A stretch of DNA of 64,000 bases from the NCBI GenBank assembly GCA_964593805.1, contig CAZQHP010000001.1, forward strand, positions 517,283-581,282. The letters are read 5' to 3'. Source of the DNA: an uncultured Candidatus Saccharibacteria bacterium (GTDB lineage Bacteria > Patescibacteriota > Saccharimonadia > Saccharimonadales > JBBQAJ01). Shown one piece after another: positions 3,647 through 56,089 of this stretch. Numbering within the stretch: the first letter of the stretch is position 1; the number at the start of each line of letters is the position of its first letter. The notes below the pieces were generated by a model. The model saw only the letters and a program-made list of their open reading frames with translations, did not search any database and was not told the DNA's origin. The position numbers and the translations under genes are program-made.

Positions 3647-4348
3647 ATGTCGGTTTATAGCAATATCCAAATCAAAGACGCCATCAAGCGGGGACACATA
3701 GTCTTTCATCCTTACGCCGAGCCAAACATCGCTGGCAGTAGCATAGACGTGACGCTCGGCGAATGGTTTTACCGCACGGAGCGCCCCAGCGAGGGTGGTT
3801 TTTATAACCCGTTTGATCCGGATGCCGTCCAGAAATACTTTGGTGAACCCCTAAAAGCCGAAATACACGCCGAATGGGCGGAAAAACACGGCCGCAAACT
3901 GTTTGCAAACATACCGCCCGGCCACCCAATCATCGTGCTTCGCCCCAAAGAACGCATTTTGGGCCACACCCACGAATTTATAGGCATCAAAGCACCGGGG
4001 ACCAGCACCATGCAGGCCCGCAGTACCTGGGGAAGGAATGGCGTAGCCGTTTGTTTGGACGCCGGCTGGGGAGATCCTGGCTACATAAACCGCTGGACTA
4101 TGGAAATCTACAACATGAACGAGCACGAAAGCGTGGTTTTACCGGTAGGGGAGCGGATTGCGCAGATGGTGTTTTACGAAACTGGCCCGGTTGACAGCGA
4201 GTACAAAAAGCTCAGCGGCAAATATCAGTCGGCCGAAAGTGCCGACCTGCCGTCTATTATCGCAAATTGGCAGCCCGAACAAATGCTGCCGCGCGCCTAC
4301 AAAGACACGCGGAAACTACCGGAGCAGATCAAAGGTTTAAAAGCATGA
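3647..4348 (+). CDS. dcd: dCTP deaminase / dUTPase-superfamily protein
   Basis: 233 aa with a Dcd-like N-terminus (IKDAIKRGHIVFHPYAEPNIAGSSIDVTLG). The RBS is AGGAGTGAGG. Confidence 0.8.
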   Translation: MSVYSNIQIKDAIKRGHIVFHPYAEPNIAGSSIDVTLGEWFYRTERPSEGGFYNPFDPDAVQKYFGEPLKAEIHAEWAEKHGRKLFANIPPGHPIIVLRPKERILGHTHEFIGIKAPGTSTMQARSTWGRNGVAVCLDAGWGDPGYINRWTMEIYNMNEHESVVLPVGERIAQMVFYETGPVDSEYKKLSGKYQSAESADLPSIIANWQPEQMLPRAYKDTRKLPEQIKGLKA

Positions 4349-6714
4349 TGGGCAAGGACAGGCCCGTGGGCACAGGCACGTTTCTAGCCATAGAAGGCAC
4401 CGACGGCTCAGGCAAAGGCACCCAGTTTGCCAAGCTGGAGCAGCGGCTCAAAGGCGAGGGCTACGATGTCGCGACCTTTGATTTTCCTCGCTACGACGAG
4501 CCTTCGTCTTACTTTGTAAAACAATATTTGAACGGCCAATACGGTACCGCCGAACAGGTCGGACCGTATACTGGGTCGCTATTTTACGCGCTTGACCGCT
4601 ACCAGGCCGCCGAACAGATAAGACAGGCGCTGAGTGATGGCAAAATAGTTATCGCCAATCGTTTCACTGGCAGCAATATGGCGCACCAAGGCACCAAATT
4701 CAGGCATGCTGAGGAAAGGCGCGGGTTTTTCATATGGCTGGACAATCTGGAATTTGAAATGCTCAAAATCCCGCGGCCGGACCGGTCAATTGTTTTACGG
4801 GTACCGGCAGAAATTGCCCAAAAACTAGTTGACCAAAAGCAAACGCGCAGCTACACGGACAAAAAACGCGATTTGCACGAAGCTGACCTGGCTCACATGG
4901 AACAAGCCGTGGAAGTATATGATGACCTGTGCCAGCTGTTTCCAAAAGACTTTACCCGTCTCGACTGTGTGCGTGATGGCAAATTAATGGGTGTTGATGC
5001 CGTTGCCAAACTTCTGTGGCAGTCGGTCGAACCGCACCTGCCACCAAAGCCGAAGGGTGGAGGGCCCAGAGCAGACAACAGAGTCGCGGAGACCAAAGTC
5101 GAAAACCCAAAGACAAATGTCCAAAAAACAGACAATCCATATATTGAAAAAACCGCGACCGGCTACCAAGTAACCCCCGCAGGGCAGACATTTTTGGATC
5201 TGAGCGTTACCAATAGCCAGGACGACGTCTACGCCTTTAGCGAAAAACTCAGCCCGACCACCATTGCCGCCGCCATGGCGCGCCTGTCCCGCCGCGGTGA
5301 TGATATGCGTGTTACGCTTTTGGACGAATTCGCACATGCTATGGGCAAAGACCAAAAACTGCTACAACGCGTTATTTCAGCCTACGGCGACGATTCTGTC
5401 CAGCAGCTGGTCGGCCAGCACGTCGTGGTAGAAAACGCCAGTAATTTGCTAACCAAAAAGCTTGAATGGGGCCGTTTGGCCGCTTATTTGGAGCAATCCA
5501 CCCGCTATATATACTTTGATAAAAAAGATGAAAACGGCAAGTACAAATACTTCACGCCGAAACATTTTGACTCAAAAACCGCCAAAACCTATGAAACGGC
5601 TATGGATCAGATATTTGACCTGTATTCAGACATGGTTCACAAACTTACCACGTACGTGCGCGATAAATCTGACGTGCCAAAAGCCGAACAAGACATAGCC
5701 TGGCAAGGTGCCACGCGCGCTCAAGCCTGCGACGCCATACGCGCGGTTTTGCCTGTGGCTACCAAAGCAACCGTAGGTATTTATGCCTCGGGACAAGCTC
5801 TGGAAAGCCTAATTATGCACCTGATGGCGGACGATTTGCCCGAAGCCGTTCATGTAGGCAAACAGCTGCTTGCAGAAGCCCGCAAAGTCATACCCACGTT
5901 TTTAGAGCGAGCCGATAAACCAGAGCGCGGCGGCGCTACTATTGCTTACAGCGCCAATACTCGGCACGCTGTAAAAGAGCTTGCTGGCAAGTATTTGCCA
6001 GACAACCACGCCAGCACCGCGGACGAAGTACAACTGGTGTCTTATTGGCCCCGCAACGAACTGGATCTGGTTCCAGATATGCTGTATGAACACAGCAGCT
6101 TGCCGCTCAAAGATTTGCAAACCCAAACGGCCAAATGGTCGATTGCCAAAAAAGAGGAAGTTTTTTCAGCTTACGTTGGCGAAAGATTAAACCGCCGGCA
6201 CAAGCCGGGCAGAGCCATAGAAAAAGCGCACTACAGCTGGGATTTGGTGTGCGACTACGGGATTTTTCGCGACCTCCAGCGGCACCGCATGGTGGACGAC
6301 ATGAACTGGCAGCTTTTGACTCCGCGCTACGGCTATGAAGTGCCCAAGCTTGTTGAAGACGCTCAGTTGGCTGAAATGTTTGAAAAGTGTTTCGACCTAA
6401 GCCTAGAGTTGTACAGCGCTCTTCAGGCGGCTGGCTACGCGCTGGAGGCCCAGTACGCCACCCTGCTGGGGCACCGCATGCGCTGGAAAGTTACCTATAA
6501 TGCCCGCGAAGCTTTTCATTTCCATGAACTCCGAACCAGTCCGCAGGGTCACCCGGGATACCGTAAATTGGTACTTCAAATGCACGAAAAACTTGCCGAG
6601 GTGCACCCCATGATGAGTGAGGCCATGAAGTTCGTAAATCAAGACGAAGACCCGGAACTGACCCGCCTAGCCGCCGAACGCGCCACCCAGTTCAAGCTCC
6701 AGCAGCTAGATTAA
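4345..6714 (+). CDS. tmk-thyX: Fusion protein: thymidylate kinase (N-terminal) plus long-form flavin-dependent thymidylate synthase ThyX (C-terminal)
   Basis: The Tmk region contains FLAIEGTDGSGKGTQ and DRY. The C-terminal ~530 aa carries ThyX-type motifs (FRDLQRHRM, FHFHELRTSPQGHPGYRKL). The ATG at 4345 overlaps the dcd stop as ATGA, so the upstream ORF extension from 4267 was rejected. Confidence 0.8.
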   Translation: MMGKDRPVGTGTFLAIEGTDGSGKGTQFAKLEQRLKGEGYDVATFDFPRYDEPSSYFVKQYLNGQYGTAEQVGPYTGSLFYALDRYQAAEQIRQALSDGKIVIANRFTGSNMAHQGTKFRHAEERRGFFIWLDNLEFEMLKIPRPDRSIVLRVPAEIAQKLVDQKQTRSYTDKKRDLHEADLAHMEQAVEVYDDLCQLFPKDFTRLDCVRDGKLMGVDAVAKLLWQSVEPHLPPKPKGGGPRADNRVAETKVENPKTNVQKTDNPYIEKTATGYQVTPAGQTFLDLSVTNSQDDVYAFSEKLSPTTIAAAMARLSRRGDDMRVTLLDEFAHAMGKDQKLLQRVISAYGDDSVQQLVGQHVVVENASNLLTKKLEWGRLAAYLEQSTRYIYFDKKDENGKYKYFTPKHFDSKTAKTYETAMDQIFDLYSDMVHKLTTYVRDKSDVPKAEQDIAWQGATRAQACDAIRAVLPVATKATVGIYASGQALESLIMHLMADDLPEAVHVGKQLLAEARKVIPTFLERADKPERGGATIAYSANTRHAVKELAGKYLPDNHASTADEVQLVSYWPRNELDLVPDMLYEHSSLPLKDLQTQTAKWSIAKKEEVFSAYVGERLNRRHKPGRAIEKAHYSWDLVCDYGIFRDLQRHRMVDDMNWQLLTPRYGYEVPKLVEDAQLAEMFEKCFDLSLELYSALQAAGYALEAQYATLLGHRMRWKVTYNAREAFHFHELRTSPQGHPGYRKLVLQMHEKLAEVHPMMSEAMKFVNQDEDPELTRLAAERATQFKLQQLD

Positions 6715-7923: not shown

Positions 7924-8448
7924 ATGGCCTTAACCAAAAATAAGAAGAATGAAGTCGTCACCGAAGTCAGCCAGCTTTTGGCTGATTCTAAGTTGACGGT
8001 TATTGCGGCCTATCAGGGTACTTCTGTGAAAGCACTGCAAGCACTGCGCAAAAGCGGCCGCGAAAATGGCACCACGCTCAAAGTTGTCAAAAACCGGCTG
8101 GTAGTCCAGGCTCTCAAAGCCAATGACACCACCAAAGACATTGATACCAGCGCGTTGACTGGCATGCTCCTGTATGCTTTTAACAGCCAGGACGAGGCAG
8201 CGCCAGCGCAAACTTTGGCAAATTTTGCTAAAACCCAGCCAACGCTGCAGTTTGTGGGCGCAATCACCGCCGAAGGCGCTTTTATGGCAGCCGACGAAGT
8301 AAAAGTATTTGCCGCGCTGCCGGGCAAAAATCAACTTATTGCTGGCATCATCAACACCCTTAATTCACCCGTGCGCGGTGTTATGGGAAGCTTGTCCGGC
8401 AATTTGCATGGAATTTTACAAGCCCTGGAAGCCAAAGCTGCTAATTAA
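7924..8448 (+). CDS. rplJ: 50S ribosomal protein L10
   Basis: 174 aa with L10-like sequence. A GGAGGA RBS is present, and rplL follows. Confidence 0.95.
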
Positions 8449-8465: not shown

Positions 8466-8846
8466 ATGGCAACAGATCTAAAGAAATTCGCGGAACAGCT
8501 GGTAAATCTCAGCGTTCTCGAAGTAAATGAACTAGGAACAATCCTCAAAGACGAATATGGCATTGAACCAGCCGCCGCGGCTGTGGCCGTAGCTGCTCCA
8601 GCTGGTGGAGAGGCTGCTCCAGCCGCCGAAGAAAAATCTGAATACGACGTCGTCCTCAAAGACGCTGGCGCTCAGAAGGTAGCTGTTATCAAGGCAGTTA
8701 AGGATATAACCGGTCTGGGTCTTGGCGAAGCCAAGGCTGTAGTAGACGGCGCTCCAAAAACTGTTTTGGAAAAAGCCAAAAAAGAAGACGCCGAAAACGC
8801 CAAAAAAGTGCTTGAAGAAGCCGGCGCTACCGTAGAATTGTCATAA
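8466..8846 (+). CDS. rplL: 50S ribosomal protein L7/L12
   Basis: 126 aa with an Ala-rich hinge and the C-terminal domain sequence [28 protein letters not shown]. Confidence 0.97.
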
Positions 8847-8906
8847 TTCAACGGTTAGCCGGAGTCCGCTACAGCGGATCGGGCAATCCGAGCTTATGGA
8901 CTATCG

Positions 8907-8927
8907 CCGCCCTAGTAGGGCGGTTTT
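8907..8927 (+). terminator. Intrinsic terminator after rplL
   Basis: ccgccc-tagta-gggcgg forms a hairpin followed by TTTT. Confidence 0.7.
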
Positions 8928-9053
8928 AGTTTATGACGTCTAGCCAGCGACAATTGCCCTCTTTACACCATCTTCCGCATCACGTATCCTAAGTACAAGC
9001 GTTATTAACGCCGGTTATTTATATATATGAAACAAATAGAAGGTAAAGTCTAA

Positions 9054-11987
9054 ATGCCTAGGCTCCCGACCCCCGGTGGTGACAATGGAACATGGGGAGA
9101 TGTCCTCAATGAGTTCTTGAGCGTTGAGCATAATGCTGACGGTACCTTGAAGACTTCCGGTTCGCTGGCATCTAAGGCCGATGATAGCGCAGTTGTTAAA
9201 CTCACTGGCGCCCAAACCGTAGCTGGCGTTAAAACTTTTTCTAGCTCGCCGGTGGTACCGGCCCCAACCAGCGGCACAGACGCCGCCAACAAGACTTACG
9301 TAGACACCACAGCCTCCGCCGGTACCCCTGATGCTGACGCCACTACTAAAGGTAAGCTCCAACTAGCTGGCGACCTAGCCGGCACCGCAGCTAGTCCCCA
9401 AATAGCCACTGGCGTCATAGTTAACGCCGACATTAATGCTGCCGCAGCTATAGCCAAGTCCAAGTTGGCTAGTTTGGATATTGTAGATGCTGACGTCAAT
9501 GCCGCCGCTGCCATAGCCCAGTCTAAGATTGCAAGCCTAACTACCGACCTAAGCAACAAGCAACCTCTGGACTCTGACCTAACCACTATTGCAGCCATAG
9601 CTCCCACTAATGACGACGTTATCCAAAGAAAAGCCGGAGCCTGGACCAACCGGACAATGTCTCAGGTCAAAACAGACCTAGCCCTAGTTAAGGGTGATGT
9701 CGGGCTGGGGAGTGTGGACAATACGAGTGATGCTAGCAAAAACAGTGCGACAGCCACGCTTTCTAACAAAACATTAGACAACACCACTGTTGAAACAATC
9801 AAGGCTGGCAACCTCACCGTTCAGGACGACACGGATACTACCAAACAGGCGAAATTTGTGGCTTCCGGCATAACTACCGTTACCACGCGGTCCTATACTC
9901 TGCCTGATGCTACGACTACTTTAGTCGGTACGGACGCAACCCAAACGCTGACCAATAAAACCATCTCAGGTGCCAGCAATACAATTAACAATGTGAGTTT
10001 GGCAACTGGAGTTACTGGCAATTTGCCCGTAACAAACTTGAACTCGGGCACGGGCGCGTCAAGTTCTACTTTTTGGCGCGGAGACGGCGCCTGGTCCACG
10101 CCAGCTGGGGGCGGCGACGCCAGTACCAACACCGCAACTTCTGTAGATAGTGAAATAGTGTTATTTTCTGGAACCGCCGGCAAAACCCTCAAGCGCGCCA
10201 CCGGCTCCGGGATTGTTAAGTCTACCTCCGGCGTATTCTCGGTAGTAAGCGCGCCAAGCGGGGCGATCGTGGGCGACACAGACACCCAAACGCTTACAAA
10301 TAAAACCCTGACTTCACCGGTAATAAATACTCCCACCGGCATAGTCAAAGGCGATGTGGGGCTTGGGAACGTAGACAACACCAGTGACTTAAACAAGCCG
10401 GTCTCCACCGCTCAGCAAGCAGCGATAGATGCTGCCAAACAGGGGTTAGATGTCAAAGATAGTGTCAGGGCTGCAACTACGGCAGCCGGAACATTGGCTA
10501 CTAGCTTTGAAAACCTAGACGCAATTGATGGGGTGACACTTGCCACAGGCGACAGAATACTTATAAAAGATCAAGCTGCTGGCGCGGAAAATGGGATTTA
10601 TACTGTTAATGCCTCTGGAGCTCCAACTAGAGCTACAGATGCCAATATCAGTGCTGAAGTTACGGCCGGAATGTATGTTTTTGTTTCTGAGGGTACGGCC
10701 AATGGAAATAATGGTTTTGTACTTACGACCGATGACCCGATAACTCTAGGCACGACTGCTTTAGTATTTACCCAGTTCAGTGGCGCCGGTCAGATCACAG
10801 CTGGAGCGGGCCTTACCAAAACCGGAAACACGCTTGATGTTGGTGCTGGCAGCGGTATTAGCGTTGCGGCCGACGGCGTTGCTATAGATACGGCAGTTGT
10901 TGCAAGTAAAACAGATAACCTTTCGGTATTCGCGGCGACGACCTCGGCTCAACTGGCAGGGGTTGTGTCGGACGAAACAGGCACCGGGGCATTAGTGTTC
11001 GCTAATTCGCCAACCCTGGTTACGCCGGCTCTTGGCACGCCTGCTTCTGGAGTAGCCACAAACCTGACTGGAACCGCAGCCGGCCTAACCGCGGGCAACG
11101 TAACAACCAACGCTAACCTGACCGGCCCGATAACTTCTACTGGCAACGCCACGGCCGTGGCAGCCCAAACCGGTACCGGCTCGACGTTTGTCATGAATAC
11201 CTCGCCAACCCTGGTAACTCCAACACTGGGCGCGGCTACCGCCACTAGCATAAACAAAGTTGCCATTACCGCTCCTGCTATCGGATCGACACTGACTATC
11301 CCAGACGGAGTTACTCTGACTGGTCCTGCAACCAGCGGAACGGCCATGACTTTGGGTAATGCTGAAACTGTTACAGGCGTTAAGACTTTTGGCTCGGCTG
11401 GCGCTGTTGGCAAACTTCAGGTAGCTGGCACTACCAGTGGTGCGACCATATTGGATGCTACTGCCGCCGCCAGCGGCACGCTTACCCTGCCGGCTGCAAC
11501 TGATACTTTAGTAGGCCGGGCAACGACCGATACGCTGACCAATAAAACTCTGACAGCACCGGTCATTTCTACCATTTCAAACACCGGCACGCTGACACTG
11601 CCTACATCGACAGACACATTAGTTGGCAAAACCACCACCGATACGCTGACCAACAAAAGAATTACTCCTAGGGTAAGTTCCGAAGCTTCGTCGGCAACGC
11701 CGACGATCAACACCGACAACGTCGACGCGCACTCTATCACCGCGCTAGCCGTTGCCATTACTTCATTCACTACCAACTTATCCGGTACGCCAACCAACTT
11801 CCAAAAGCTTACCATCCGCATCAAAGACAACGCCACCGCCCGTGCGATTACCTGGGGCACCTCATTTGAGGCCAAGGGCGCTGCCTTACCAACCACTACA
11901 GTCGTGTCCAAAGTTCTGACCATTGGCTTTATTTACGACACCGTAACTAGCAAATGGGGCTGTGTAGCCACGGCCCAGGAGGCTTGA
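9054..11987 (+). CDS. Phage-tail-fibre-like protein 1 (977 aa)
   Basis: Its N-terminus, [22 protein letters not shown], is shared with the 13832 paralog. It has the fibre-shaft motif [27 protein letters not shown] and about five (T/S)L(T/S)NK(T/R) repeats. A central domain ([15 protein letters not shown]...RATD...LVFTQF) is typical of phage tail-fibre proteins. The composition is Ala/Thr/Gly-rich. Confidence 0.8.
9295..9740 (+). repeat. 446-bp direct repeat shared by the two fibre genes, copy 1
   Basis: It aligns without indels to 14034-14479 (offset 4739). The first 259 bp (9295-9553) are identical, and about 10 scattered substitutions follow. Confidence 0.95.
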
Positions 11988-11991
11988 GCCC

Positions 11992-13725
11992 GTGGCGAAT
12001 CGTTATTGGGTTGGCGGTACGGCATCTTGGGACGCCACGGCCGGTACAAAATGGGCAACTACTTCTGGTGGGGCAGGTGGCTCGGCTGTCCCTACAGCCG
12101 CCGACGACGTATTTCTAGATGGCCCCTCCGGAGCTGTAACGGTAACAATTAGTGGCTCACGAGTCTGCCGATCATTTACATGTACCGGCTTTACCGGCAC
12201 TCTTACGGGTACAAGCTCGCCAGTTTTATCAATTGGTGATGCCAGCGGCGGGGCTATGACACTAGTTGCTGGCATGACGGTTGGCACTGCGCCCACGCTG
12301 AATTTTGTGTCTACTTCCAACAACGGCGGGACCGGCTGGGCTATTACTACTGGCGGTCAGACTTTGAGCCATATGACATTTGACGGTGTCGGCGGCAAAT
12401 GGGTTTTGCAAGATACAGTCAGCCTTTTTTTTGGAGCTGTGACCCTGACTAACGGCACGCTTGATACGAACAGCAAAACCATGAACATACACAACTTTGC
12501 CAGCAGCAATTCCAATACCCGTACCCTAACACTTGGATCGTCTACCATTAACTGTGATCGCCTGCTTTCTGCCGGGGCTTTCTGGGAGACAACTACCACT
12601 ACCGGCCTGACCTTTAGCGGCGCGTCGTCTACGATAGTTTTGGGCCCGACAAGCAGCGGGCTGACTCGTAACTTTAATGGCGGCGGGTTAACCTACGGGA
12701 CACTATCCTATACGGCTACCGGTTCAACTGGCCGGATGGTAGTTGCCGGATCAAATACCTTTAACACCATCAATGTTGGTTCGGGTAGATCTATCGCTTT
12801 TACGGTCGGGACCACAAACACAGTCACTAACTGGAACGTAAACGGCGCTCTGTTTGAATATCAAAGAATATCCGGTACGTCAGGCGACTATATTTCAACG
12901 CCAGACTCGGCGGCCCTGTCAATAACCGGCGACATTACCATACTCACCAGGGTAGCCATGGATTCCTGGACGCCCTCATCATCAAAAATGTTCGTAGCCA
13001 AACGGGCCGTTACAGGCAACCAGCGCAGTTATCACTGGAATATATCTGGTACTGGTTTTATGGCATTTGTAATTTCCACTGATGGCACCGCTGTGATTGC
13101 AGCGACAGCTGATGCTGCTACCGGCTTCGCTGCCGGCAGTACCAACTGGGTGCTAGTATCTAGGCGCTCTTCCGACGGCCGAGTCCAGTTTTATAAAGCC
13201 GACGGCTCGCTGACAAATCCCGCAGCTTCAGACTTTACGCAGATTGGGACGGACCAGACTCCTGCAGCTGGAGCAATTTTTGACGGCACCGCTCCGCTGG
13301 AGGTAGGCTCTTCGGACTTAGGCACGGTTCAGCCAGCTCCATGCAACGTCTACAGAACAATTGTCTACAACGGGCTGTTTTCTACCGCCGCGTTTGGCGG
13401 TACAATTCAGTTTGACGCCGACTTCACCAGAAAAAAGTTCGGAGACAATACGTTTACCGAGTCATCAGCCAACGCCGCCACAGTTACCATGAACGGCTCA
13501 ACTATTTACGGCGATGGTAGAGTAGATGTAGACTCAGATACTGTGGGTTCACATTTTCTAACCAAGGCTACGGCCGGTGTTTTCGCTAGTGATTACCTAG
13601 TAGTGACGCGTTCCGTGGCTTCGGGCGGTACTTGGTACGCTGGAGGCCATTCTGTTGACGGAACAGCCAACTCCGGCTGGATATTTCAAACATACGGCGA
13701 CGGACGGTTTTTGAGCATGTTTTAG
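11992..13725 (+). CDS. Secreted/structural protein with a C-terminal LamG (concanavalin-A-like lectin) type domain
   Basis: 577 aa with a GTG start and AGGAGG 8 nt upstream. The N-terminal motif is RYWVGGTASWDATAGTKWATTSGGAGGSAVPTAADDVFLD. The C-terminal region (SGDYISTPDSAALSITGDITIL..WVLVSRRSSDGRVQFYKADG) resembles LamG/Laminin_G_3. Confidence 0.65.
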   Translation: MANRYWVGGTASWDATAGTKWATTSGGAGGSAVPTAADDVFLDGPSGAVTVTISGSRVCRSFTCTGFTGTLTGTSSPVLSIGDASGGAMTLVAGMTVGTAPTLNFVSTSNNGGTGWAITTGGQTLSHMTFDGVGGKWVLQDTVSLFFGAVTLTNGTLDTNSKTMNIHNFASSNSNTRTLTLGSSTINCDRLLSAGAFWETTTTTGLTFSGASSTIVLGPTSSGLTRNFNGGGLTYGTLSYTATGSTGRMVVAGSNTFNTINVGSGRSIAFTVGTTNTVTNWNVNGALFEYQRISGTSGDYISTPDSAALSITGDITILTRVAMDSWTPSSSKMFVAKRAVTGNQRSYHWNISGTGFMAFVISTDGTAVIAATADAATGFAAGSTNWVLVSRRSSDGRVQFYKADGSLTNPAASDFTQIGTDQTPAAGAIFDGTAPLEVGSSDLGTVQPAPCNVYRTIVYNGLFSTAAFGGTIQFDADFTRKKFGDNTFTESSANAATVTMNGSTIYGDGRVDVDSDTVGSHFLTKATAGVFASDYLVVTRSVASGGTWYAGGHSVDGTANSGWIFQTYGDGRFLSMF

Positions 13726-13831
13726 GCGCTAAACACTATACAACCCCCCGCCAATCCGGTATATTTAGACACAAGCGGTAACAGTTTTGGATAGACTGAT
13801 ATGAAAAACATAAAATCAAAGGTACTTATAA

Positions 13832-15922
13832 ATGCCTAGGCTCCCAACCCCCGGCGGCGACAATGGAACGTGGGGAGATGTCCTCAACGAATTTTTAGGT
13901 GTCTCTCATGAAACTGACGGCACCCTAAAAGCCTCTGCCAAAGCAGATAAAGTCTCCAAATCCGGCGACACCATGACCGGGGCTCTGACTCTTCCCGGTG
14001 ACCCAACCTCCGGGCTTCATGCAGCTACAAAATCTTACGTAGACACCACAGCCTCCGCCGGTACCCCTGATGCTGACGCCACTACTAAAGGTAAGCTCCA
14101 ACTAGCTGGCGACCTAGCCGGCACCGCAGCTAGTCCCCAAATAGCCACTGGCGTCATAGTTAACGCCGACATTAATGCTGCCGCAGCTATAGCCAAGTCC
14201 AAGTTGGCTAGTTTGGATATTGTAGATGCTGACGTCAATGCCGCCGCTGCCATAGCCCAGTCTAAGATTGCAAGCCTAACTACCGACCTAAGTAACAAGC
14301 AACCTCTGGACTCTGACCTAACCGCCATTGCAGCCCTAGCTCCCACTAATGACGACGTTATCCAAAGAAAAGCCGGAGCTTGGACCAACCGCACCATGGC
14401 TCAGGTCAAAACAGACCTAGCCCTAGTCAAGGGTGATGTTGGGCTGGGGAGTGTGGACAATACGAGTGATGCTAGCAAACCGGTGTCAACGGCCACCCAA
14501 ACGGCGTTGGATCTAAAAGCTAACGACAGTGCGGTTGTAAAGTTGACTGGCGACCAGACCGTCGCGGGGATCAAGACGTTTTCGTCTTCGCCGATTGTCC
14601 CGGTACCGACAACTTCAACTCAAGCGGCCCAAAAAAATACCGTTGACACTGCCATATCAGCACTGAGAACAGCCAACGATGGCTATGGTACAGCCGTAAA
14701 TACCGCCACTGCGGGCGTTTTTAAGATTGATCAAGTTATTGACGTACAGACTTTTACGACAACAGGTGCGTATAACTGGGTACCGCCAACTTGGGCTGCC
14801 TCAACGTCTACTGTTGAAGTAGAAGTAGTTGGCGCTGGTGGGGGCGGTGGGGGCGCTCGGCGAGGTGCTACTGGTACTATTCGCGGCGGAGGTGGCGGCG
14901 GAGCCTCTGGCAATCACTCGATTAAAACATTTTTATACGGAGACTTAACCCTGCCGAACGGTATTTGGATAAGTGGCAATGTCGGGGCTGGCGGAACGGC
15001 TGGTGCAGGAGCCTCGGCAGATAGTACAGATGGAAGTGACGGGGGAGATGGTGGTGCATCATATTTTGGTATTTATCTTTACGCTTCAGGCGGGGGTGGT
15101 GGGAAAAAAGGCACCAGTACCGACGGTGGGGCAGGCGGTGTAGTTGGATCGAGAGGCATGTTCCCAGGCCTACCAGGAGCAAAAGGCGGTGGTCTAACTA
15201 CTGCGGCTTCGCTGGCTACATACGGGCTATTTGACAATTCCTACGGCGAAGTTACGCAAGCCACCAGCAAATCGACTGGCGTAACGCTAAATTCCCGAAC
15301 TGGGCAAATAACTATGAATAACGCGTCATTGGCCGCTACAACAAGCGTTAGCTTTACGCTGACCAACTCGGCAATACTTATAAACGATGATGTTGAGGTC
15401 AATATTGCCAGCGCGGCAACCACCAATTCATATTCCGTTACGGTGGATTTGGTTGCAAACGGGTCATGTCGAATACATGTGCGCAACGTGACAGCGGGCG
15501 CACTTGGCGAAGCGCTAGTACTAAACTTTAACGTAATCAAAGCCATGAACGCTTTTGGTTCGGCGCAGGTGGCAAGTGGCGCTGGTGGCGGAGGTGAGGG
15601 GCTTACAGCCGCAAATGCGTCAGCAACAGGCTCGGACGGCGGAGCTGCAAACGGCTATACCGACGGCTCCACTGCAGGCGGTATTCACGGGGTTATCTTA
15701 TCTAATGTCGCTGCAGCTGGAACGACCGCCGGACCATTCATAGCATCTGGCGGCGGTGGCGGACAGCGTGGTTCCGGCGCCGGGCTTGGAGGCGGAGCCG
15801 GTGGCGCAGGCGGTTCGCCGGGCGGCGGTGGTGGCGGCGGTGGCTGTAACAGCAATGGATCTGCTAGTGGTGCTGGTGGTGTCGGTGGCGCCGGAAAGGT
15901 TAGAATTGTTACTCGGCCATGA
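13832..15922 (+). CDS. Phage-tail-fibre-like protein 2 with a glycine-rich C-terminal region (696 aa)
   Basis: It shares the N-terminus of the 9054 protein. The motif SKSGDTMTGALTLPGDPTSGLHAATKSYVD matches the phage tail-fibre repeat (GDTMTG type). The C-terminal half carries G6-G8 runs, as in actinophage minor-tail/glycine-rich proteins. Confidence 0.8.
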   Translation: MPRLPTPGGDNGTWGDVLNEFLGVSHETDGTLKASAKADKVSKSGDTMTGALTLPGDPTSGLHAATKSYVDTTASAGTPDADATTKGKLQLAGDLAGTAASPQIATGVIVNADINAAAAIAKSKLASLDIVDADVNAAAAIAQSKIASLTTDLSNKQPLDSDLTAIAALAPTNDDVIQRKAGAWTNRTMAQVKTDLALVKGDVGLGSVDNTSDASKPVSTATQTALDLKANDSAVVKLTGDQTVAGIKTFSSSPIVPVPTTSTQAAQKNTVDTAISALRTANDGYGTAVNTATAGVFKIDQVIDVQTFTTTGAYNWVPPTWAASTSTVEVEVVGAGGGGGGARRGATGTIRGGGGGGASGNHSIKTFLYGDLTLPNGIWISGNVGAGGTAGAGASADSTDGSDGGDGGASYFGIYLYASGGGGGKKGTSTDGGAGGVVGSRGMFPGLPGAKGGGLTTAASLATYGLFDNSYGEVTQATSKSTGVTLNSRTGQITMNNASLAATTSVSFTLTNSAILINDDVEVNIASAATTNSYSVTVDLVANGSCRIHVRNVTAGALGEALVLNFNVIKAMNAFGSAQVASGAGGGGEGLTAANASATGSDGGAANGYTDGSTAGGIHGVILSNVAAAGTTAGPFIASGGGGGQRGSGAGLGGGAGGAGGSPGGGGGGGGCNSNGSASGAGGVGGAGKVRIVTRP
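14034..14479 (+). repeat. 446-bp direct repeat shared by the two fibre genes, copy 2
   Basis: See 9295-9740. Confidence 0.95.
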
Positions 15923-16737
15923 GCATAGCCGTAGCCGCCAGAGTTTCATCCTACAGAGTTGTTTTTGACGGGCAGTCCCTAAATTCATACGGATCCCCCA
16001 ACCATTATCCTGCGAAACTAATGTCTGGGAGAGGCATACCCTGGATTGATGTTGCTATAGCAGGCTATGCTTGGCTCCAGCTGAAAACAATGCTAGACAA
16101 CAGAGTAACGCCCCACCTTGTACGTGGTTCAATCACAATACTGATTGGTGTGGGGGGAACAACAGATTACGCACTAAACCAGACCGGCCAAAACGTTTAC
16201 GATTCTGAGGTTACCTGGGCTACAAATGCCCGAGCAGCCGGTGCCGACTACATTATTCAAACAACCACAACCCCGTCTACATCCTTTGGCGCCAACACAA
16301 CCGTCGCTTCTGGCTCAAATGGTGTTAATACCAATACTTTCGCTGGTTCGGGAACACTAAATGTAGCTAGTACTACCGATGCACCTTCGTCAGGTACAAT
16401 TATCGTTGCCACTGGCGGCACGCCAGCCACCATTACTTACACCGGTACAACATCTACAACTTTTACTGGTTGCAATACGACGTCAGGCGGTGGCGTTATG
16501 AGCACAAACGGTACGGTTAGGAACATTATATATTCCCGGTTTTACGACGGCAATGCGCTGGTGATGGCTGACGCTTCAGCCGCCTTTGACTACAAGGTAG
16601 ATTTGGCTGGTGATTCTCGCTTAGCAGATCCAACTAACACAACTTATTACATAGATGGCACCCACCCCACCAATGCCGGCAGGCAAGTCATGGCCGACCT
16701 AGTCGCGCCTGCCCTGAACGCGATTCTCGCACTGTAG
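15919..16737 (+). CDS. SGNH/GDSL-family hydrolase-like protein (putative esterase)
   Basis: 272 aa, with its ATG overlapping the previous stop as ATGA. Block I is FDGQSLN near the N-terminus and block V is DGTHPT near the C-terminus. A Thr/Gly/Ser-rich insertion is present. Confidence 0.55.
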   Translation: MSIAVAARVSSYRVVFDGQSLNSYGSPNHYPAKLMSGRGIPWIDVAIAGYAWLQLKTMLDNRVTPHLVRGSITILIGVGGTTDYALNQTGQNVYDSEVTWATNARAAGADYIIQTTTTPSTSFGANTTVASGSNGVNTNTFAGSGTLNVASTTDAPSSGTIIVATGGTPATITYTGTTSTTFTGCNTTSGGGVMSTNGTVRNIIYSRFYDGNALVMADASAAFDYKVDLAGDSRLADPTNTTYYIDGTHPTNAGRQVMADLVAPALNAILAL

Positions 16738-16866
16738 AAAGAACTGGGATTTTCTCTAGTCGCACGGTCCTACTTTATCCACAGCCCTTTTGACTTGAGC
16801 GCTGCATCGTGGTACGGTAAGTTCAGAAGTGTACCAAATAAACACTTACCAAAAGAGACTTAAGAA

Positions 16867-17376
16867 ATGTCAGATGTACCAGAAAAACAAATCAAACGGT
16901 TAAAATCCTTGATTCAAGAGGCGGAGACTAGCTTGGCAGCAGCCAAGGAGTTGCTGATGAGCCTGGTTGGCGAGGATCCGGTTGTAGCCGCGGCTATCGC
17001 CGAAGAACCGCTGGGCAAAATTATAGAGGGCGTTTTTGACGGCCAAACCATGGTGGGTTCTGACGCCAAAAACTACCCCGTACCGGCAAACTACGCTAGT
17101 AAATCTAAGCTCGTCCAGGGTGACATATTGAAGCTGACAATTGCCGATGACGGTTCGTTTTTGTACAAACAGATTGGCCCGGTTCCCCGCAAGCAAGTGG
17201 TGGGCATGCTCAAACTGGAAAACGGCCACTACTTTGTAGACGTTGGCGGCAAACAGTACCGCGTGCTACTGGCCAGCGTCACCTATTTCAAAGCCAAGCC
17301 CGGCGACCAAGTCAGCGTGAACGTTCCAGAAGACGACACCCACGCCGAATGGGCCGCCCTTGAAGCTGCCCTTTAA
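16867..17376 (+). CDS. Hypothetical protein
   Basis: 169-aa ORF with an N-terminal helical region. No motif was recognised. Confidence 0.5.
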   Translation: MSDVPEKQIKRLKSLIQEAETSLAAAKELLMSLVGEDPVVAAAIAEEPLGKIIEGVFDGQTMVGSDAKNYPVPANYASKSKLVQGDILKLTIADDGSFLYKQIGPVPRKQVVGMLKLENGHYFVDVGGKQYRVLLASVTYFKAKPGDQVSVNVPEDDTHAEWAALEAAL

Positions 17377-17476: not shown

Positions 17477-18922
17477 ATGGGCAAAGCACTATACCGGAAA
17501 CACCGGCCTAAAAAACTATCTGAAATTATCGGCCAACAGCACATCACCGATACGTTAGAACGCGCCCTAAAACAGGGAACTGTTAGCCATGCTTACCTGC
17601 TTACCGGCCCGCGCGGAGTCGGCAAAACCAGTATTGCTAGAATCCTGGCCTACGAAGTCAACGGCCTGCCTTATGACGAAGAAGCTACTCACCTGGACAT
17701 TATAGAAATAGACGCTGCCAGCAACCGCCGGATAGACGAAATCCGCGAGCTCAAAGATCGCGTAAACATTGCGCCCACAAGCGCCAAGTACAAGGTCTAC
17801 ATAATTGACGAAGTCCACATGCTTACCAAAGAGGCTTTTAACGCGCTGCTAAAAACGCTCGAAGAGCCGCCAGAACACGCCATATTTATCCTGGCCACCA
17901 CCGAAGCCCACAAAGTGCCGGCCACCATCACCAGTCGCACCCAGCGTTTTACCCTTAAGCCCATAGAGACCGACAAAGTAGTGTCTCACCTCAAAGAAAT
18001 TGCCCAAGCCGAAAAAATCACGATTGACGGGGCTGCCCTGGAACTCGTAGCCGCTCACGGCGAAGGAAGTTTCCGAGATAGCATCAGCCTGCTAGACCAA
18101 ATAAGGCACGCCAGTGGCCATATTGGACTAAAAGATGTCCAGCAAGCGATTGGACAGGCTCCAGACGAGTTGTTAAATGACTTGCTGAACGCCGTTAGCA
18201 GCCGCGATGTCCAGGCGGTTGGCGCCAGCCTGGCCGCACTGCGCTCGCACGGCGTCCAGGCCGCCCAAATCGCCCACCAACTATCCAAGCTACTGCGCCG
18301 GGGCTTGCTGGACAACGAACTACAGTTGCCGGCCGAGCAAACCCTGCGGCTCCTGGGAGAACTGCTGCACATACCAGCCGCCCATGATCCTGCCGTAGCA
18401 CTTGAGCTGGCTCTTTACAGCACCGCCTTGTCAGACAAACATCATGAGTCCCTAGACATGAGCCCTGAGCAAATGCCCGCAAATCCAAAGAAAAAAGAAG
18501 AAAAGGTCGAAGAGCAAACGCCAGCAAAAAGTCCACCAGAAGATGAAAAGACCCCCGCCTATCACGACTCAACGGGCGTTCTTGATGCCGAGTCTTGGCA
18601 AGAGGTTCTGGCCGCCGTCAAAGCCAAGTACAACACTTTGTATGGTATCGCGCGGATGGCGTCGCCTAGTTTTAGTAAAGACAAACTAACTTTGGCTTTT
18701 GTGTTTGCCTTCCATCAGAAAAAACTGGGTGACAGCAAAAACCGGCAACTGCTGCAAGACATAATTGCCCAGGTCACCGGAGCCAATGTAAGCGTGGAGT
18801 GCGTGCTTGATAAAACGGCCGAACCAGCGCCAGCTATAACCAAACCAGAGATAAAACTAGCCAGTGCCGTCAATCTGGAAACCATAAGCAATATCTTTGG
18901 CGGCGCAGAAATAGTAGAGTAG
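17477..18922 (+). CDS. dnaX: DNA polymerase III subunit gamma/tau
   Basis: 481 aa containing AYLLTGPRGVGKTS (Walker A), IIDEVHML and SRTQRF. Confidence 0.93.
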   Translation: MGKALYRKHRPKKLSEIIGQQHITDTLERALKQGTVSHAYLLTGPRGVGKTSIARILAYEVNGLPYDEEATHLDIIEIDAASNRRIDEIRELKDRVNIAPTSAKYKVYIIDEVHMLTKEAFNALLKTLEEPPEHAIFILATTEAHKVPATITSRTQRFTLKPIETDKVVSHLKEIAQAEKITIDGAALELVAAHGEGSFRDSISLLDQIRHASGHIGLKDVQQAIGQAPDELLNDLLNAVSSRDVQAVGASLAALRSHGVQAAQIAHQLSKLLRRGLLDNELQLPAEQTLRLLGELLHIPAAHDPAVALELALYSTALSDKHHESLDMSPEQMPANPKKKEEKVEEQTPAKSPPEDEKTPAYHDSTGVLDAESWQEVLAAVKAKYNTLYGIARMASPSFSKDKLTLAFVFAFHQKKLGDSKNRQLLQDIIAQVTGANVSVECVLDKTAEPAPAITKPEIKLASAVNLETISNIFGGAEIVE

Positions 18923-20382: not shown

Positions 20383-21585
20383 ATGAAACAATCCGGTAGC
20401 AAATTTAGAGAGTGGGTTTTCATGATGTGGCGGCCTATTTTGGCTTTTTTGGGCGTGGCGCTGGTGGTTAGCTCTATCTTGGGCTTTCGACTGGGAGCCC
20501 TGACACCCGCGGCCAGCGCCCCCGAGCAAAACTACATAGCCAGCGTTAATTCAGGCAAGGAACTGCTGAAACATCCTGTCTATGCGGTCCACAAAGTACC
20601 GGTATACGTGCTTTCTAAACTTCGCGTTAATCGGCTGGCCGCCTACCGGGCAGTCAGCGCGGCGTTCGCCAGCCTGGCGGTTGTGAGCTGTTTTTTTGTC
20701 CTCAGAGAGTGGTACACCAACCGCATCGCCGTCTTAGGCAGCTGGATATTTCTCAGCTCCGCCTGGGTTCTGCATACCGGCCGTCTGGCCACGCCCGAAG
20801 CTTCGTACTTGTTGCTTATGCCACTGCTATGGGCGGTCGTATGGCTGTATAACACCACTTTGCGCAAAACAGCCCTGTTGCTCCTCAGTTTCTTGTGCGC
20901 CGCCAGTTTTTACATCCCGGGCTTTGGCTGGCTGCTTATCATCATAGCCATCTGGCAGCACAAGCGCATCTGGGACGAGCTTAAGTTTGTGCCGTGGTGG
21001 TTTAGGGTCATCTGCGGGATAGTTATCGCGGTTGGGCTGGCGCCGCTGGTGTGGGCGGGGGTAGCGTCTCCGCGCGAACTACTGCTAGCCGGCGGTTTGC
21101 CAGAACATCTGCCCACCCTAAAAAGCCTCGCCCTCAATCTGCTGGGTATACCCGAACAGCTGTTCGCTCGCGGCCCCAACGACCCAGTTCGCTGGTTAGG
21201 CCGCCTGCCACTGCTGGACGTTTTCAGCACCGCCATGCTAGTACTCGGGATTTATAGCATACGCTACCACCTAAAACTCATTAGGATTCAGCTACTTGTA
21301 GGCAGTTCGCTGCTGCTAGCACTGCTTATTACGCTTGGCGGGCCACTGACAATTACCGTACTTATGCCAGCTGTGTATATTTTGATAGCCGGCGGCATGG
21401 CTTTTATGCTCCAGCAGTGGCTGGCGGTTTTTCCGCGCAATCCAATCGCCCGCACTATTGCCACCACTCTGTTGGCTGTCTCCGTGTTGCTCGTATCTTT
21501 TTATCACATAAACCACTATTTCATTGCCTGGCCGCAGGCACCGGCTACAAAAGCCGCTTTCTCTGGTAAAATAGTACAGAAGTAA
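20383..21585 (+). CDS. Polytopic membrane protein, possibly an ArnT/PMT-like (GT-C) glycosyltransferase
   Basis: 400 aa with at least 9 hydrophobic segments. The family assignment is tentative. Confidence 0.5.
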   Translation: MKQSGSKFREWVFMMWRPILAFLGVALVVSSILGFRLGALTPAASAPEQNYIASVNSGKELLKHPVYAVHKVPVYVLSKLRVNRLAAYRAVSAAFASLAVVSCFFVLREWYTNRIAVLGSWIFLSSAWVLHTGRLATPEASYLLLMPLLWAVVWLYNTTLRKTALLLLSFLCAASFYIPGFGWLLIIIAIWQHKRIWDELKFVPWWFRVICGIVIAVGLAPLVWAGVASPRELLLAGGLPEHLPTLKSLALNLLGIPEQLFARGPNDPVRWLGRLPLLDVFSTAMLVLGIYSIRYHLKLIRIQLLVGSSLLLALLITLGGPLTITVLMPAVYILIAGGMAFMLQQWLAVFPRNPIARTIATTLLAVSVLLVSFYHINHYFIAWPQAPATKAAFSGKIVQK

Positions 21586-43010: not shown

Positions 43011-43076
43011 AAATTGATAGTAGCACAATCCTGTTTTGACTGCGACAGATTGATGCGCCTATACTTAGAACGTATC

Positions 43077-43670
43077 ATGAAAAGCATACCTTGGCCCTCG
43101 GACAAACTACTAAAACGAGTAAACCACGCACTCCTGGCCAGCATTATTTTGACCAATGGTTATGTCCTGCTGATGCCTTTGTTGCCAAAGGTGAATTACG
43201 AACTCAAACAGCGTATTACAAAGCCCGTAAAAGTCAATCCGGCGGATTCCAACAGCGTAGGTAGCATTGACCGGTCGCGCGACCACCTGATATTGCCAAC
43301 CATGCAGCTGGATGAGCCGGTTTATTTTGGCACCAATGCCTCGCTAGTCCACAGGGGCATCTGGCAGCGCCCACAGACAAATACGCCAGACAAAGGAGGC
43401 AATACCGTGCTGGTAGGCCACCGCTTTACCTACGCCGGAGCGGCGGTGTTTTATAACCTGGACAAACTAAAGACTGGCGACGACGTCTACTTTGCGTACA
43501 ACCAAAAAATTTATCATTACAAAGTAACCAGCTCTGCCATAGTGCCGCCGACGGCTGTGGAAGTAGAAGCACCTAGCCATGAAACCAAACTCACGCTCTA
43601 CACCTGCGCGCCGCTTTTAACTGCCAAAGACCGTTTGGTATATGTAGCCGAACTAAAGGAAATCTTATGA
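43077..43670 (+). CDS. Sortase family transpeptidase
   Basis: It has an N-terminal TM anchor, the catalytic His context VLVGHRF, and the TLxTC motif (LTLYTCAP). The promoter is TTGACT-18-TATACT upstream of the ATG at 43077. Confidence 0.8.
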   Translation: MKSIPWPSDKLLKRVNHALLASIILTNGYVLLMPLLPKVNYELKQRITKPVKVNPADSNSVGSIDRSRDHLILPTMQLDEPVYFGTNASLVHRGIWQRPQTNTPDKGGNTVLVGHRFTYAGAAVFYNLDKLKTGDDVYFAYNQKIYHYKVTSSAIVPPTAVEVEAPSHETKLTLYTCAPLLTAKDRLVYVAELKEIL

Positions 43671-43777: not shown

Positions 43778-44448
43778 TTCTGGTTAGCGCGCCTAACAAC
43801 CAGGTAGTAGTAGCCTGCCGCTAACAGTGCTGCCAGGCCGCCGGCGTACCACCAATTGCTGGTTTTTGAGCCGTCATCGGTTTTTTTGGTTTCCGCGCCC
43901 AGGACATCCTTCTTGTCTTTGTCAGTGCTAGCGGCTTGGTCGTCCACTACGCCATCACCGTTAGTATCGCCAGCCACAGCGCCAGCAGTTTGGCCGCCCG
44001 TAGCCGTGCCAGCTGTACCGGCTCCTTGGCCGCCAGCACCAGTGTTGGTAAACACCGTCGTAACGGTTGGCTGTGGTGCATTAGTAATCTGGACGCTTAC
44101 CGTTTTGCTGGGTTTTGTGCTTTCACCGTCCCCATGGTTTGTGGATTGGACGTAGTAGCTATATGTTCCGGTTGCCGGCAGGGAGATACTGAATACCCCT
44201 GAGTTGCCGTTGTTGTGAGTAACTTCTTGCGTTCCTTTTGAGAGGCTGTTTTCAAATAACTCTACTTTGAAATCGTCTTCTGGGATTGTAGAAGTCACGC
44301 CGTAAGCAATGTTTAGGGTTCGGTTTGAGGTAGCCGCTGGCTCAGATATATCAACATTTACATATCGTTGCAAAACCGCGTAAGCGGGAACAGTAAGTAC
44401 TACAAGACTTACTAGAGTAATGATTGCCGTGGTAATTAGACGCTTCAT
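43774..44448 (-). CDS. Secreted Ig/FN3-like protein with a Gly/Thr/Ala linker and a C-terminal TM anchor, coupled to the giant adhesin
   Basis: The ATG at 44448 overlaps the adhesin stop as ATGA, with AGGAGG upstream. The signal peptide is MKRLITTAIITLVSLVVLTVPAYA, and the C-terminus is GGLAALLAAGYYYLVVRRANQN. Confidence 0.65.
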   Translation of the reverse strand: MKRLITTAIITLVSLVVLTVPAYAVLQRYVNVDISEPAATSNRTLNIAYGVTSTIPEDDFKVELFENSLSKGTQEVTHNNGNSGVFSISLPATGTYSYYVQSTNHGDGESTKPSKTVSVQITNAPQPTVTTVFTNTGAGGQGAGTAGTATGGQTAGAVAGDTNGDGVVDDQAASTDKDKKDVLGAETKKTDDGSKTSNWWYAGGLAALLAAGYYYLVVRRANQN

Positions 44449-55959: not shown

Positions 55960-56089
55960 CTTTGTAACGTTCTTGAACGAAAATAGACTAAACAGCCTCA
56001 AACACACCTACTGCCTCCATCCACCCCTAACAGATGATTAATTTTACTTTCCACTGAAGATAATAACAAGAACTGCCGGGCAGACTTAG

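Follow-up and report, generated by a model that had tools for sequence, protein, structure and literature searches.

Several phage systems join a tail-fibre gene to other receptor-binding functions. In T2 and T6 (gp37-gp38), lambda (Stf-Tfa) and Mu (S-U), the fibre gene has an adjoining, coupled partner gene that is specific for the fibre tip and is exchanged along with it. Phages with several receptor-binding proteins (RBPs), such as CBA120 with its tailspikes TSP1-4 and G7C with the SGNH O-antigen deacetylase gp63.1 and gp66, combine beta-helices, carbohydrate-binding domains and SGNH esterases. The stf/tfa remnants of the cryptic prophages e14, Rac and Qin in Escherichia coli K-12 are orphan fibre genes that lie among core genes, with neither capsid nor packaging genes, and form a recombination reservoir, and in the ‘multilocus genome’ of the gene transfer agent (GTA) RcGTA and in tailocins, receptor-binding genes are found away from the structural cluster and selection acts at the level of the host. 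The four-gene block described here is like each of these in part, and it has sequence modules in common with the minor tail proteins of actinophages and the fibres of cyanophages (Gly_rich_2 PF21722, DUF5907 and BppL_N; gp28, pdb:8i4m). It occupies positions 9054-16737, on the + strand, of a 64,000-nucleotide stretch from an uncultured Candidatus Saccharibacteria bacterium, a member of the Candidate Phyla Radiation (CPR; GenBank assembly GCA_964593805.1, contig CAZQHP010000001.1, positions 517,283 to 581,282). This whole stretch is called the window, and all positions given for it are counted from its first nucleotide. We know of no GTA or tailocin described in CPR bacteria.

An earlier note, made from the letters of the window, had listed four open reading frames (ORFs) in the block and had seen in their combination of fibre, lectin and esterase the vocabulary of phage receptor binding. 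Both statements hold. All four ORFs are present at the positions listed and are intact, and the phage vocabulary is borne out by matches in PHROG, Pfam and the PDB and by structural models of ORF2 and ORF4. ORF1 (9054-11987, 977 aa, ATG start) is a mosaic tail-fibre-like protein, ORF2 (11992-13725, 577 aa, GTG start) joins a beta-helix to a lectin domain of the LamG/concanavalin A (ConA) kind, ORF3 (13832-15922, 696 aa, ATG start) is a second tail-fibre-like protein and ORF4 (15919-16737, 272 aa, ATG start) is an esterase of SGNH fold; all are on the + strand. Homologues at E ≤ 1e-3 number 5494 for ORF1, 3756 for ORF2 and 63 for ORF4, and with so many homologues the ORFs are genuine genes rather than chance frames. 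Candidatus Saccharimonadales is the source of the nearest named homologues. Opposite-strand ORFs of 115-171 aa within ORF1 are taken as coding-strand shadows. We tentatively favour reading the block as a functional, exchangeable, phage-derived receptor-binding island that targets a surface glycan and whose carrier would be encoded elsewhere, the carrier being likelier to be a phage-type particle than the cell surface.

The window runs through nusG, rplK, rplA, a gene for a dNMP kinase, dcd, a tmk-thyX fusion, a 162-aa gene on the minus strand, rplJ (7924-8448) and rplL (8466-8846), and continues after the cassette with ORF5 (16867-17376, + strand, 169 aa), dnaX (17477-18922) and dnaB. The block had been thought to sit where rpoB and rpoC normally follow rplJL. 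A survey of 80 related metagenome loci, in which ORF5 served as an anchor independent of the cassette, gives a different picture: all 57 loci that show both rplL and ORF5 have the order rplL-ORF5-dnaX-dnaB, and rpoB is there in none. This rules out a displacement of rpoBC by the cassette, which was therefore inserted with nothing displaced. The earlier placement between rplL and dnaX is correct on the left, where rplL precedes the block, and needs amendment on the right, where the conserved core gene ORF5, itself outside the cassette, intervenes between ORF4 and dnaX. The spacer between rplL and ORF5 measures 125-277 bp in 42 of the 57 loci, the slot being empty, and 572-1331 bp in 15, each with one unrelated small gene. 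The slot is empty in the close relative L208, whose ORF5 and RplL are 94 and 91% identical to those of the window. The cassette is a lineage-specific insertion of ~8 kb into a permissive and variable rplL-ORF5 slot, which is a hotspot for accessory genes beside the ribosomal-protein operon.

Both edges of the slot are marked. On the left is an intrinsic-terminator-like hairpin of rplL, GCCGCCCTAGTAGGGCGGT followed by a T-run (8906-8934, + strand), and on the right is the promoter and leader of ORF5, TTATCCACAG...TTGACTTGA...GTGGTACGGTA...AGAAGTGTACCAAATAAACACTTACC (16780-16866, + strand), which is conserved in relatives both with and without the cassette. The region upstream of ORF5 includes a hairpin-forming leader, AGAAGTGTACC AAATAA ACACTTACC. 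ORF5 matches no Pfam family. Its identity is 76-97% in over 200 metagenome contigs, in which it always lies between rplL and dnaX, and it appears to be an uncharacterised core gene of the clade. The genes that occupy the slot in relatives (e.g. L209, L285, L212 and L278) encode membrane proteins, winged-helix-like regulators and others.

At least two more genomes carry the cassette in this slot. One is represented by loci L001 and L289, both from sample SRR12983678: rplL is followed by an ORF1 homologue in L001, and an ORF4 homologue is followed by ORF5 and dnaX in L289. The other is represented by L079/L080, with the C-terminus of ORF1, an ORF2 homologue, a 302-aa fibre with the shared N-terminus, a 200-aa SGNH protein, ORF5 and dnaX. 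The contiguous relatives L001 and L079, with their supporting gene order, rule out an assembly chimera at the repeat shared by ORF1 and ORF3, and the break in synteny is no assembly artefact, a chance that the earlier note had allowed for. At this N-terminal repeat, which is 95% identical between the two genes, assemblies made independently from the same strain do break off: L292 ends in ORF1 at aa ~126, L205 begins in ORF3 at aa ~88, and the 4.8-kb contig that carries P0121 is a further case. Such breaks make it likely that many metagenome-assembled genomes (MAGs) show the cassette only in fragments or miss it. Parts of it also occur in other contexts, the ORF1-tip/ORF2 pair being followed in L082 by a GT1 glycosyltransferase gene and the ORF3/ORF4 pair in L290 by VIT1 and a COX-related gene. 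In L082 a 174-aa endolysin-like protein (3750-4274 of that locus) comes after the glycosyltransferase, a context nearer to a prophage remnant than that of the window.

ORF1, ORF3 and ORF4 are under purifying selection comparable to that on core genes. Ratios of nonsynonymous to synonymous substitution (dN/dS) were obtained as pairwise Nei-Gojobori approximations, some with dS near saturation, and are 0.068 for ORF1 against L001 and 0.088 for the C-terminus of ORF3 against L290; for ORF4 the comparison with L289 gives 0.10 and that with L290 gives 0.076. The corresponding values are 0.047 for rplL and 0.11 for dnaX. The similarity of the cassette to its relatives disagrees with that of its flanks. 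Between the window and the L289 genome, ORF4 is 90% identical with a dS of 0.7, whereas dnaX is 54% and dnaB 81% identical with dS saturated. Between the window and L079 the disagreement runs the other way, ORF2 being 67-68% and ORF4 41% identical and dnaB and ORF5 94 and 97%. Such a mismatch points to lateral exchange of the whole cassette or of some of its parts. In Saccharibacteria, which are naturally competent, recombination takes place with homology arms of ~1 kb (PMC10633639), and as the flanks of the cassette (rplJL and ORF5-dnaB) are highly conserved, homologous recombination across them is a plausible route of exchange. Site-specific integration was considered and rejected, there being no integrase and no flanking direct, inverted or att-like repeats. 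Composition is ambiguous as a sign of foreign origin. The overall GC content of the cassette is like that of the backbone. At third codon positions (GC3) it is 0.46-0.51, as against 0.56-0.66 in core genes nearby, and no other part of the window deviates as much in tetranucleotide usage; the deviations in GC3, in GC2 at second codon positions and in tetranucleotide usage can be explained for the most part by the abundance of Thr, Gly, Ala and Ser in the proteins.

The evidence for joint exchange of fibre tip and partner gene comes from relatives of ORF1 and ORF2 and the genes beside them. In the viral contigs L117 and L111 the ORF2 homologue is surrounded by PHROGs for major head/protease, virion, tail and baseplate-wedge proteins, and genes for terminase, for an SU10 or P22-type portal and for an adaptor occur in L286 and L288, which also carry an ORF2 homologue. 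Among the 75 viral loci with enough sequence upstream of the ORF2 homologue, 39 have a homologue of the C-terminal domain of ORF1 that ends directly 5' of it. The same adjacency of ORF1 tip and ORF2 is found in L079, L082 and L287, the last being a further orphan cassette, on a 369-kb cellular contig, that comprises a DUF5907 fibre with a phrog_3030 tip, an ORF2-like protein, an SGNH-type esterase, a 109-aa gene and a minor-tail-like protein. In L001 the ORF1 homologue is collinear to residue 831, beyond which its C-terminal domain is a different one, and it is followed by a gene that does not resemble ORF2. Judged by these sequence comparisons, the tip domain of ORF1 and its partner gene move and are replaced as a unit, and from this joint replacement we infer docking of ORF2 on the tip of ORF1. 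In 52 of 79 viral loci (IMG/VR loci L088-L161, e.g. L135 at ~4606-4841) the phrog_3030-tip fibre gene and the ORF2 homologue are separated by a small conserved ORF of ~55-80 aa. This ORF has the consensus MKIDFEF.T.YG.F.DALYLPDDH.FT.EEI.AMKQERL.NW and gave no match in PHROG.

ORF2 itself is a member of a very large and uncharacterised family of phage tip proteins, with almost no representatives among cultured phages. Its C-terminus had been described as LamG- or lectin-like, and an AlphaFold2 model (predicted local distance difference test, pLDDT, 94.3) compared by Foldseek agrees, with a sandwich like those of ConA, LamG, pentraxins and CBM40. In the model, with approximate boundaries, a beta-helix at aa 1-285 (11992-12846) is followed by the ConA/LamG/pentraxin-like lectin at aa ~290-480 (12859-13431) and by a small C-terminal beta domain (13450-13722), all on the + strand. 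The lectin matches CBM40 (pdb:6er3), pentraxins (pdb:4pbp) and LamG (pdb:1qu0) with template-modelling (TM) scores, normalised to the target, of 0.6-0.69. The top PDB match of ORF2 in Foldseek is the CBA120 tailspike TSP2 (pdb:6w4q and 5w6p), at a low TM-score of 0.20, and matches in BFVD are proteins of uncultured Caudovirales annotated as ‘Concanavalin A-like lectin/glucanases superfamily’ or parallel beta-helix. Searches of curated families with ORF2 returned no Pfam match even at E ≤ 10 and no PHROG match, and a sequence search of the PDB was empty; among the ORF2 homologues listed, only P0229 carries PF13385. Relatives are present in 342 IMG/VR contigs and in only one cultured phage, where 32% of the length of ORF2 is covered. 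The closest full-length relatives are chromosomal, with 65-67% identity; even the best of the viral matches do not exceed 59% identity, and these cover the N-terminal domain only.

The two fibre-like proteins are paralogues, as the earlier note recognised, and share their first ~235 aa with 81% aa identity (9054-9758 in ORF1 and 13832-14497 in ORF3, + strand, by sequence alignment). Within this region 300 nt of DNA at 9263-9562 are 95% identical to 14002-14301. The same 45-aa adaptor motif opens both proteins (9054-9188 and 13832-13966, + strand) and is followed in the shared region by BppL_N-like and DUF5907-like elements. It recurs in 5206 cluster representatives, nearly always as residues 1-45 of proteins of 63-1218 aa, and past ~35 residues these diverge into collagen-like, beta-helix or other domains. 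The adaptor is common to phage proteins and to proteins of many non-CPR phyla. These proteins thus have what is expected of fibres, an attachment module conserved at the N-terminus and distal parts that vary. The adaptor is present in Streptomyces phage BRock (L291, 8791-9738 and 781-2622), where it heads a collagen-repeat protein encoded within a tRNA array and away from the tail module; the start given for the BRock protein in the annotation apparently lies upstream of the motif. Solitary adaptor-bearing genes also stand amid housekeeping genes in three other Saccharimonadales MAGs.

ORF1 contains repeated ‘TLP..TDTLVG...TLTNKT’ units, a central domain at aa ~440-650 (10371-11003, + strand) that matches PHROG 30390, 27782, 2647 and 11518, and a phrog_3030-like C-terminal domain at aa ~815-977 (11496-11984, + strand), which would be the tip on which ORF2 docks. 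The central domain is found in many prokaryotic genomes and in 413 records of cultured phages, in proteins whose annotations read tail fibre, head decoration or structural/virion. In ORF3 the GDTMTG sequence pointed out previously is at aa 45-50, and the C-terminus is Gly-rich, as had also been said, Gly making up 18% of the protein overall. A Gly_rich_2 region (aa 309-485), a beta domain (aa ~452-571) that recurs in proteins of cyanophages and Acinetobacter phages, and a Gly-rich tail (aa 572-696) can be distinguished. Residues 80-337 of ORF3 match the solved fibre gp28 of cyanophage P-SCSP1u (pdb:8i4m) with an E-value of 1.3e-7, and a PDB sequence search with ORF1 gave only a chance match. 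The two proteins match PHROG tail-fibre, minor-tail and virion families, with E-values down to 1.5e-41, and the Pfam families BppL_N, DUF5907 and Gly_rich_2 (35.7 bits against a cut-off of 24.3). Modules of ORF1 occur in 413 records of cultured phages and modules of ORF3 in 122. The matches in any one record cover at most 21% of ORF1 or 17% of ORF3, and no full-length counterpart of either protein was found in cultured phages.

ORF4 had been called SGNH-esterase-like, and its AlphaFold2 model (pLDDT 94.8) has the SGNH flavodoxin-like fold. Foldseek against the PDB returns 4ppy, 4iyj, 4rw0, 7pzg and TesA with a probability of 1.0 and TM scores (target) of 0.7-0.8, the nearest folds being acylhydrolases, sialate O-acetylesterases and TesA. 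The catalytic-type residues of blocks I and V, Ser20 within GQSL (15976-15978), Asp246 (16654-16656) and His249 (16663-16665), all on the + strand, are invariant in 41 homologues. As regards blocks II and III, which form the oxyanion hole, in the same homologues Gly79 and Gly80 are nearly invariant and there is no clear GxND; Thr116 is invariant and Thr117 nearly so at the expected strand end, and a nearly invariant Asn212 is located after an insert. This insert is a beta domain of ~80 aa (aa ~125-202; 16291-16524, + strand) that is present in about half of the homologues. ORF4 itself has no Pfam match, and several of its homologues carry PF13472. A scan with the single protein gave no relatives in viral contigs, and a hidden Markov model of ORF4 run against all fetched loci matched only in chromosomal cassettes and in one Pirellulales MAG.

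The block was first described as a single operon of four genes. The genes are co-directional, and the details given for two of the junctions are correct: ORF2 starts 4 nt after the stop of ORF1, with a Shine-Dalgarno sequence AGGAGG within the end of ORF1, and ORF3 and ORF4 overlap in ATGA. Against a single operon is the 106-bp spacer between ORF2 and ORF3, which holds promoter-like sites (13737-13816, + strand) and may start a putative second transcription unit. A motif upstream of ORF3 is similar to one upstream of ORF1, and a promoter-like site TTTACA-17-TATCCT, identified as a consensus match only, is found 5' of ORF1 (8962-8990, + strand). Because of the promoter-like sites in the spacer, the block is better described as two coupled gene pairs; it looks like two translationally coupled pairs, ORF1-ORF2 and ORF3-ORF4, and not like one proven four-gene operon.

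By its hallmark features the locus is neither a prophage nor a surface adhesin. A search of the rest of the 64-kb window, with PHROGs included, gave no family for capsid, terminase, portal, tail tube, baseplate, integrase or lysis, in agreement with the earlier note. No integrase, att repeats, packaging, head or tube genes or pseudogenes adjoin the cassette, and the window has no cluster of sheath, tube, baseplate and capsid genes of the kind that defines a tailocin, contractile injection system or GTA. ORF1 and ORF3 are flanked by rplL and by ORF5-dnaX, not by a virion module. A target of a diversity-generating retroelement was also sought and rejected: positions 8800-17000 hold no repeat like a template or variable repeat beyond the ORF1/ORF3 paralogy, and no reverse transcriptase family was found among the scanned proteins of the window. 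ORF1-4 have no signal peptide, twin-arginine motif, transmembrane segment or LPXTG, their maximum 19-aa hydropathy is below 1.45 and none has a hydrophobic N-terminal region. The positive control for this export check is a SpaA-repeat protein of the window, which has a signal peptide and a C-terminal anchor.

The proposed mode of action of the island can be put as follows. ORF1 and ORF3 would attach, by their near-identical N-termini, to one and the same docking partner. ORF2 would be seated on the tip of ORF1 and would bind a surface polysaccharide of the target cell, and ORF4 may strip acyl or acetyl groups from the same glycan. Assembly would take place in the cytoplasm, onto a phage-type particle with its other genes outside the window; the particle might be a resident phage, an infecting phage or a domesticated particle. 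Purifying selection keeps the island, and lateral exchange spreads and diversifies it, tip and partner being swapped jointly. Given proteins with no export or anchor signal and with relatives in virions, cytoplasmic assembly onto a phage-type carrier is the most economical arrangement, and a classical exported adhesin seems less likely than a phage-type particle. Some of the findings tell against this. The carrier is hypothetical, no particle or structural gene being present in the 64 kb. The purifying selection could in part reflect time spent in phage genomes before transfer. The small ORF that separates fibre and partner in many phages was not found in the window or in any chromosomal cassette that was fetched, and the arrangement in chromosomes therefore differs from a plain copy of that in phages. 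Finally, the solitary adaptor genes of the three other MAGs fit a function at the level of the cell at least as well as they fit a particle.

The last two of these findings count in favour of the proposal made in the earlier note, that the proteins are domesticated surface adhesins: fibres, lectin and esterase would be displayed on the cell's own surface for attachment to a host or partner, and swaps of the tip would alter host range. Adhesins are essential to the epibiotic growth of cultivated Saccharibacteria (PMC10633639). The genome has 773,622 bp (~0.77 Mb), 64 kb of which were read here, and in so small a genome the genes are intact and under strong purifying selection, in a locus that is laterally exchanged and variable at the tip in the manner of an interaction determinant. 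Actinobacteria are the known host group, and their phages account for many of the module matches of ORF1 and ORF3, though such phages are heavily over-represented in the database. The proposal gains no direct support from the proteins themselves, in which Sec/Tat signals, transmembrane segments and sortase motifs are absent, whereas the SpaA protein encoded in the same window has both signal peptide and anchor. The occurrence of the N-terminal adaptor in phage proteins and in many non-CPR phyla, and the lack of any secretion gene linked to the cassette, also speak against it, and we regard it as doubtful, while still a serious contender. A bolder version holds that Saccharimonadales have co-opted phage receptor-binding modules as a chromosomal, exchangeable cassette for cell recognition, displayed non-classically or on a domesticated particle, that tip swaps re-programme the glycan recognised, and that the pairing of ORF2 with phrog_3030 is a new class of tip complex; taken as a whole this is rather unlikely.

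Small CPR genomes are generally regarded as deletion-prone, and this bears on a third view, in which the cassette is the tail-fibre end of a decayed prophage, without a current function in the cell and awaiting deletion. Such an inert remnant would be consistent with a cassette built entirely of phage-type modules and surrounded by no other phage genes, with its GC3 below that of the neighbouring core genes, with the related pair in L082, two genes from an endolysin-like gene, and with a slot that gathers unrelated accessory genes as well. It is improbable in view of four intact ORFs, of dN/dS values of 0.07-0.10 over a dS of 0.7-2, of an architecture that recurs in this slot in two or more other genomes with strongly different core genes, and of the concerted conservation of the N-termini of ORF1 and ORF3; moreover, no integrase, att repeats or pseudogenes were found, and inert DNA would be lost readily from a genome of this kind. 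A quite different idea is that the proteins are decoys, host-encoded fibres that would be built into the progeny of an infecting phage, mis-targeting them or blocking their assembly and so protecting kin. Conserved adaptors with variable tips, cytoplasmic proteins without export signals, lateral exchange of the locus and the presence of defence genes (AbiV and a DNA methylase) elsewhere in the window would all suit it. It is pure inference, the cassette is not part of a defence island, and the intact lectin and esterase partners point to real engagement of a receptor rather than poisoning; we consider it very improbable indeed.

Other features of the window may be mentioned briefly. Adjacent genes on the − strand encode a sortase (43014-43670) and the SpaA-repeat protein (44445-49628), which has 1727 aa and carries some ten repeats of the SpaA-type prealbumin fold, together with a classical signal peptide and, at the C-terminus, a hydrophobic anchor; the pair looks like the canonical surface-display route of the organism. 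A low-GC stretch at 54480-56668 (GC 0.41-0.45) encodes an N6/N4 DNA methylase, a 198-aa protein and an AbiV-type HEPN protein and is probably a small defence island. The fused thymidylate kinase-ThyX ORF (4267-6714) has 815 aa from a TTG start and 782-789 aa in other assemblies, and with dcd and the dNMP kinase gene it forms a nucleotide-metabolism block between rplA and rplJ that is kept across relatives. A 101-aa ORF in the nusG-rplK interval (643-948) has no Pfam match and recurs only in assemblies of the same strain. A 400-aa ORF after dnaB (20383-21585), also with no Pfam match, has a counterpart at the same position in most relatives, 23-38% identical. The annotation of relatives places YbaB, RecR, DHH and CysS just 3' of dnaB, and farther along the window are glycosyltransferases, a DD-carboxypeptidase, TatC and AddA.

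How CPR bacteria, and Saccharibacteria in particular, recognise their partner cells, and what phages attack them, are largely open questions on which this locus touches; the first report of a phage shown to target a bacterium of the CPR dates only from 2026 (PMC13578794). The locus offers a concrete receptor-binding module, selected and laterally exchanged, in a minimal genome. If it is a remnant or an accessory of phages, it is an ordinary outcome of gene flow between phage and host; if it has been co-opted, tip swaps beside rplL would set the host glycan bound by the epibiont or by its particle. Apart from the island, the continuation of rplJL into dnaX/dnaB rather than rpoBC in this clade matters to those who use that synteny as a landmark.

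No account of such a cassette came up in searches of the literature on tail fibres of Saccharibacteria and Patescibacteria, on DUF5907 and on host attachment in CPR bacteria, and each of the known systems that it resembles differs from it in some way. The coupling of a fibre gene to a tip-specific partner recalls T2/T6, lambda and Mu. However, ORF2 has no relationship in sequence or fold to gp38 or Tfa, being a 577-aa protein of beta-helix and LamG domains that belongs to no Pfam or PHROG family; the pair is chromosomal and without the rest of a phage, and the contact between ORF1 and ORF2 is a predicted one. The predicted fold of ORF4 is close to the sialate O-acetylesterases, as in phages with enzymatic spikes, but unlike the proteins of CBA120 and G7C, ORF4 is a free-standing enzyme of 272 aa with an inserted beta domain and not a tailspike, and no baseplate or adaptor genes are nearby. 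The fibre remnants of e14, Rac and Qin differ in that here there is no integrase or prophage debris, a single slot is used across divergent genomes, purifying selection is core-like and the genome is of ~0.77 Mb. RcGTA and tailocins have a structural cluster, of which none is seen in the 64-kb window, and no regulatory link of the kind is known here. The fibres of actinophages and cyanophages match only over short modules. What is new is an orphan RBP island in a CPR chromosome, selected and laterally exchanged, that is built around a large uncharacterised family of tip proteins and resides in a defined recombination slot.

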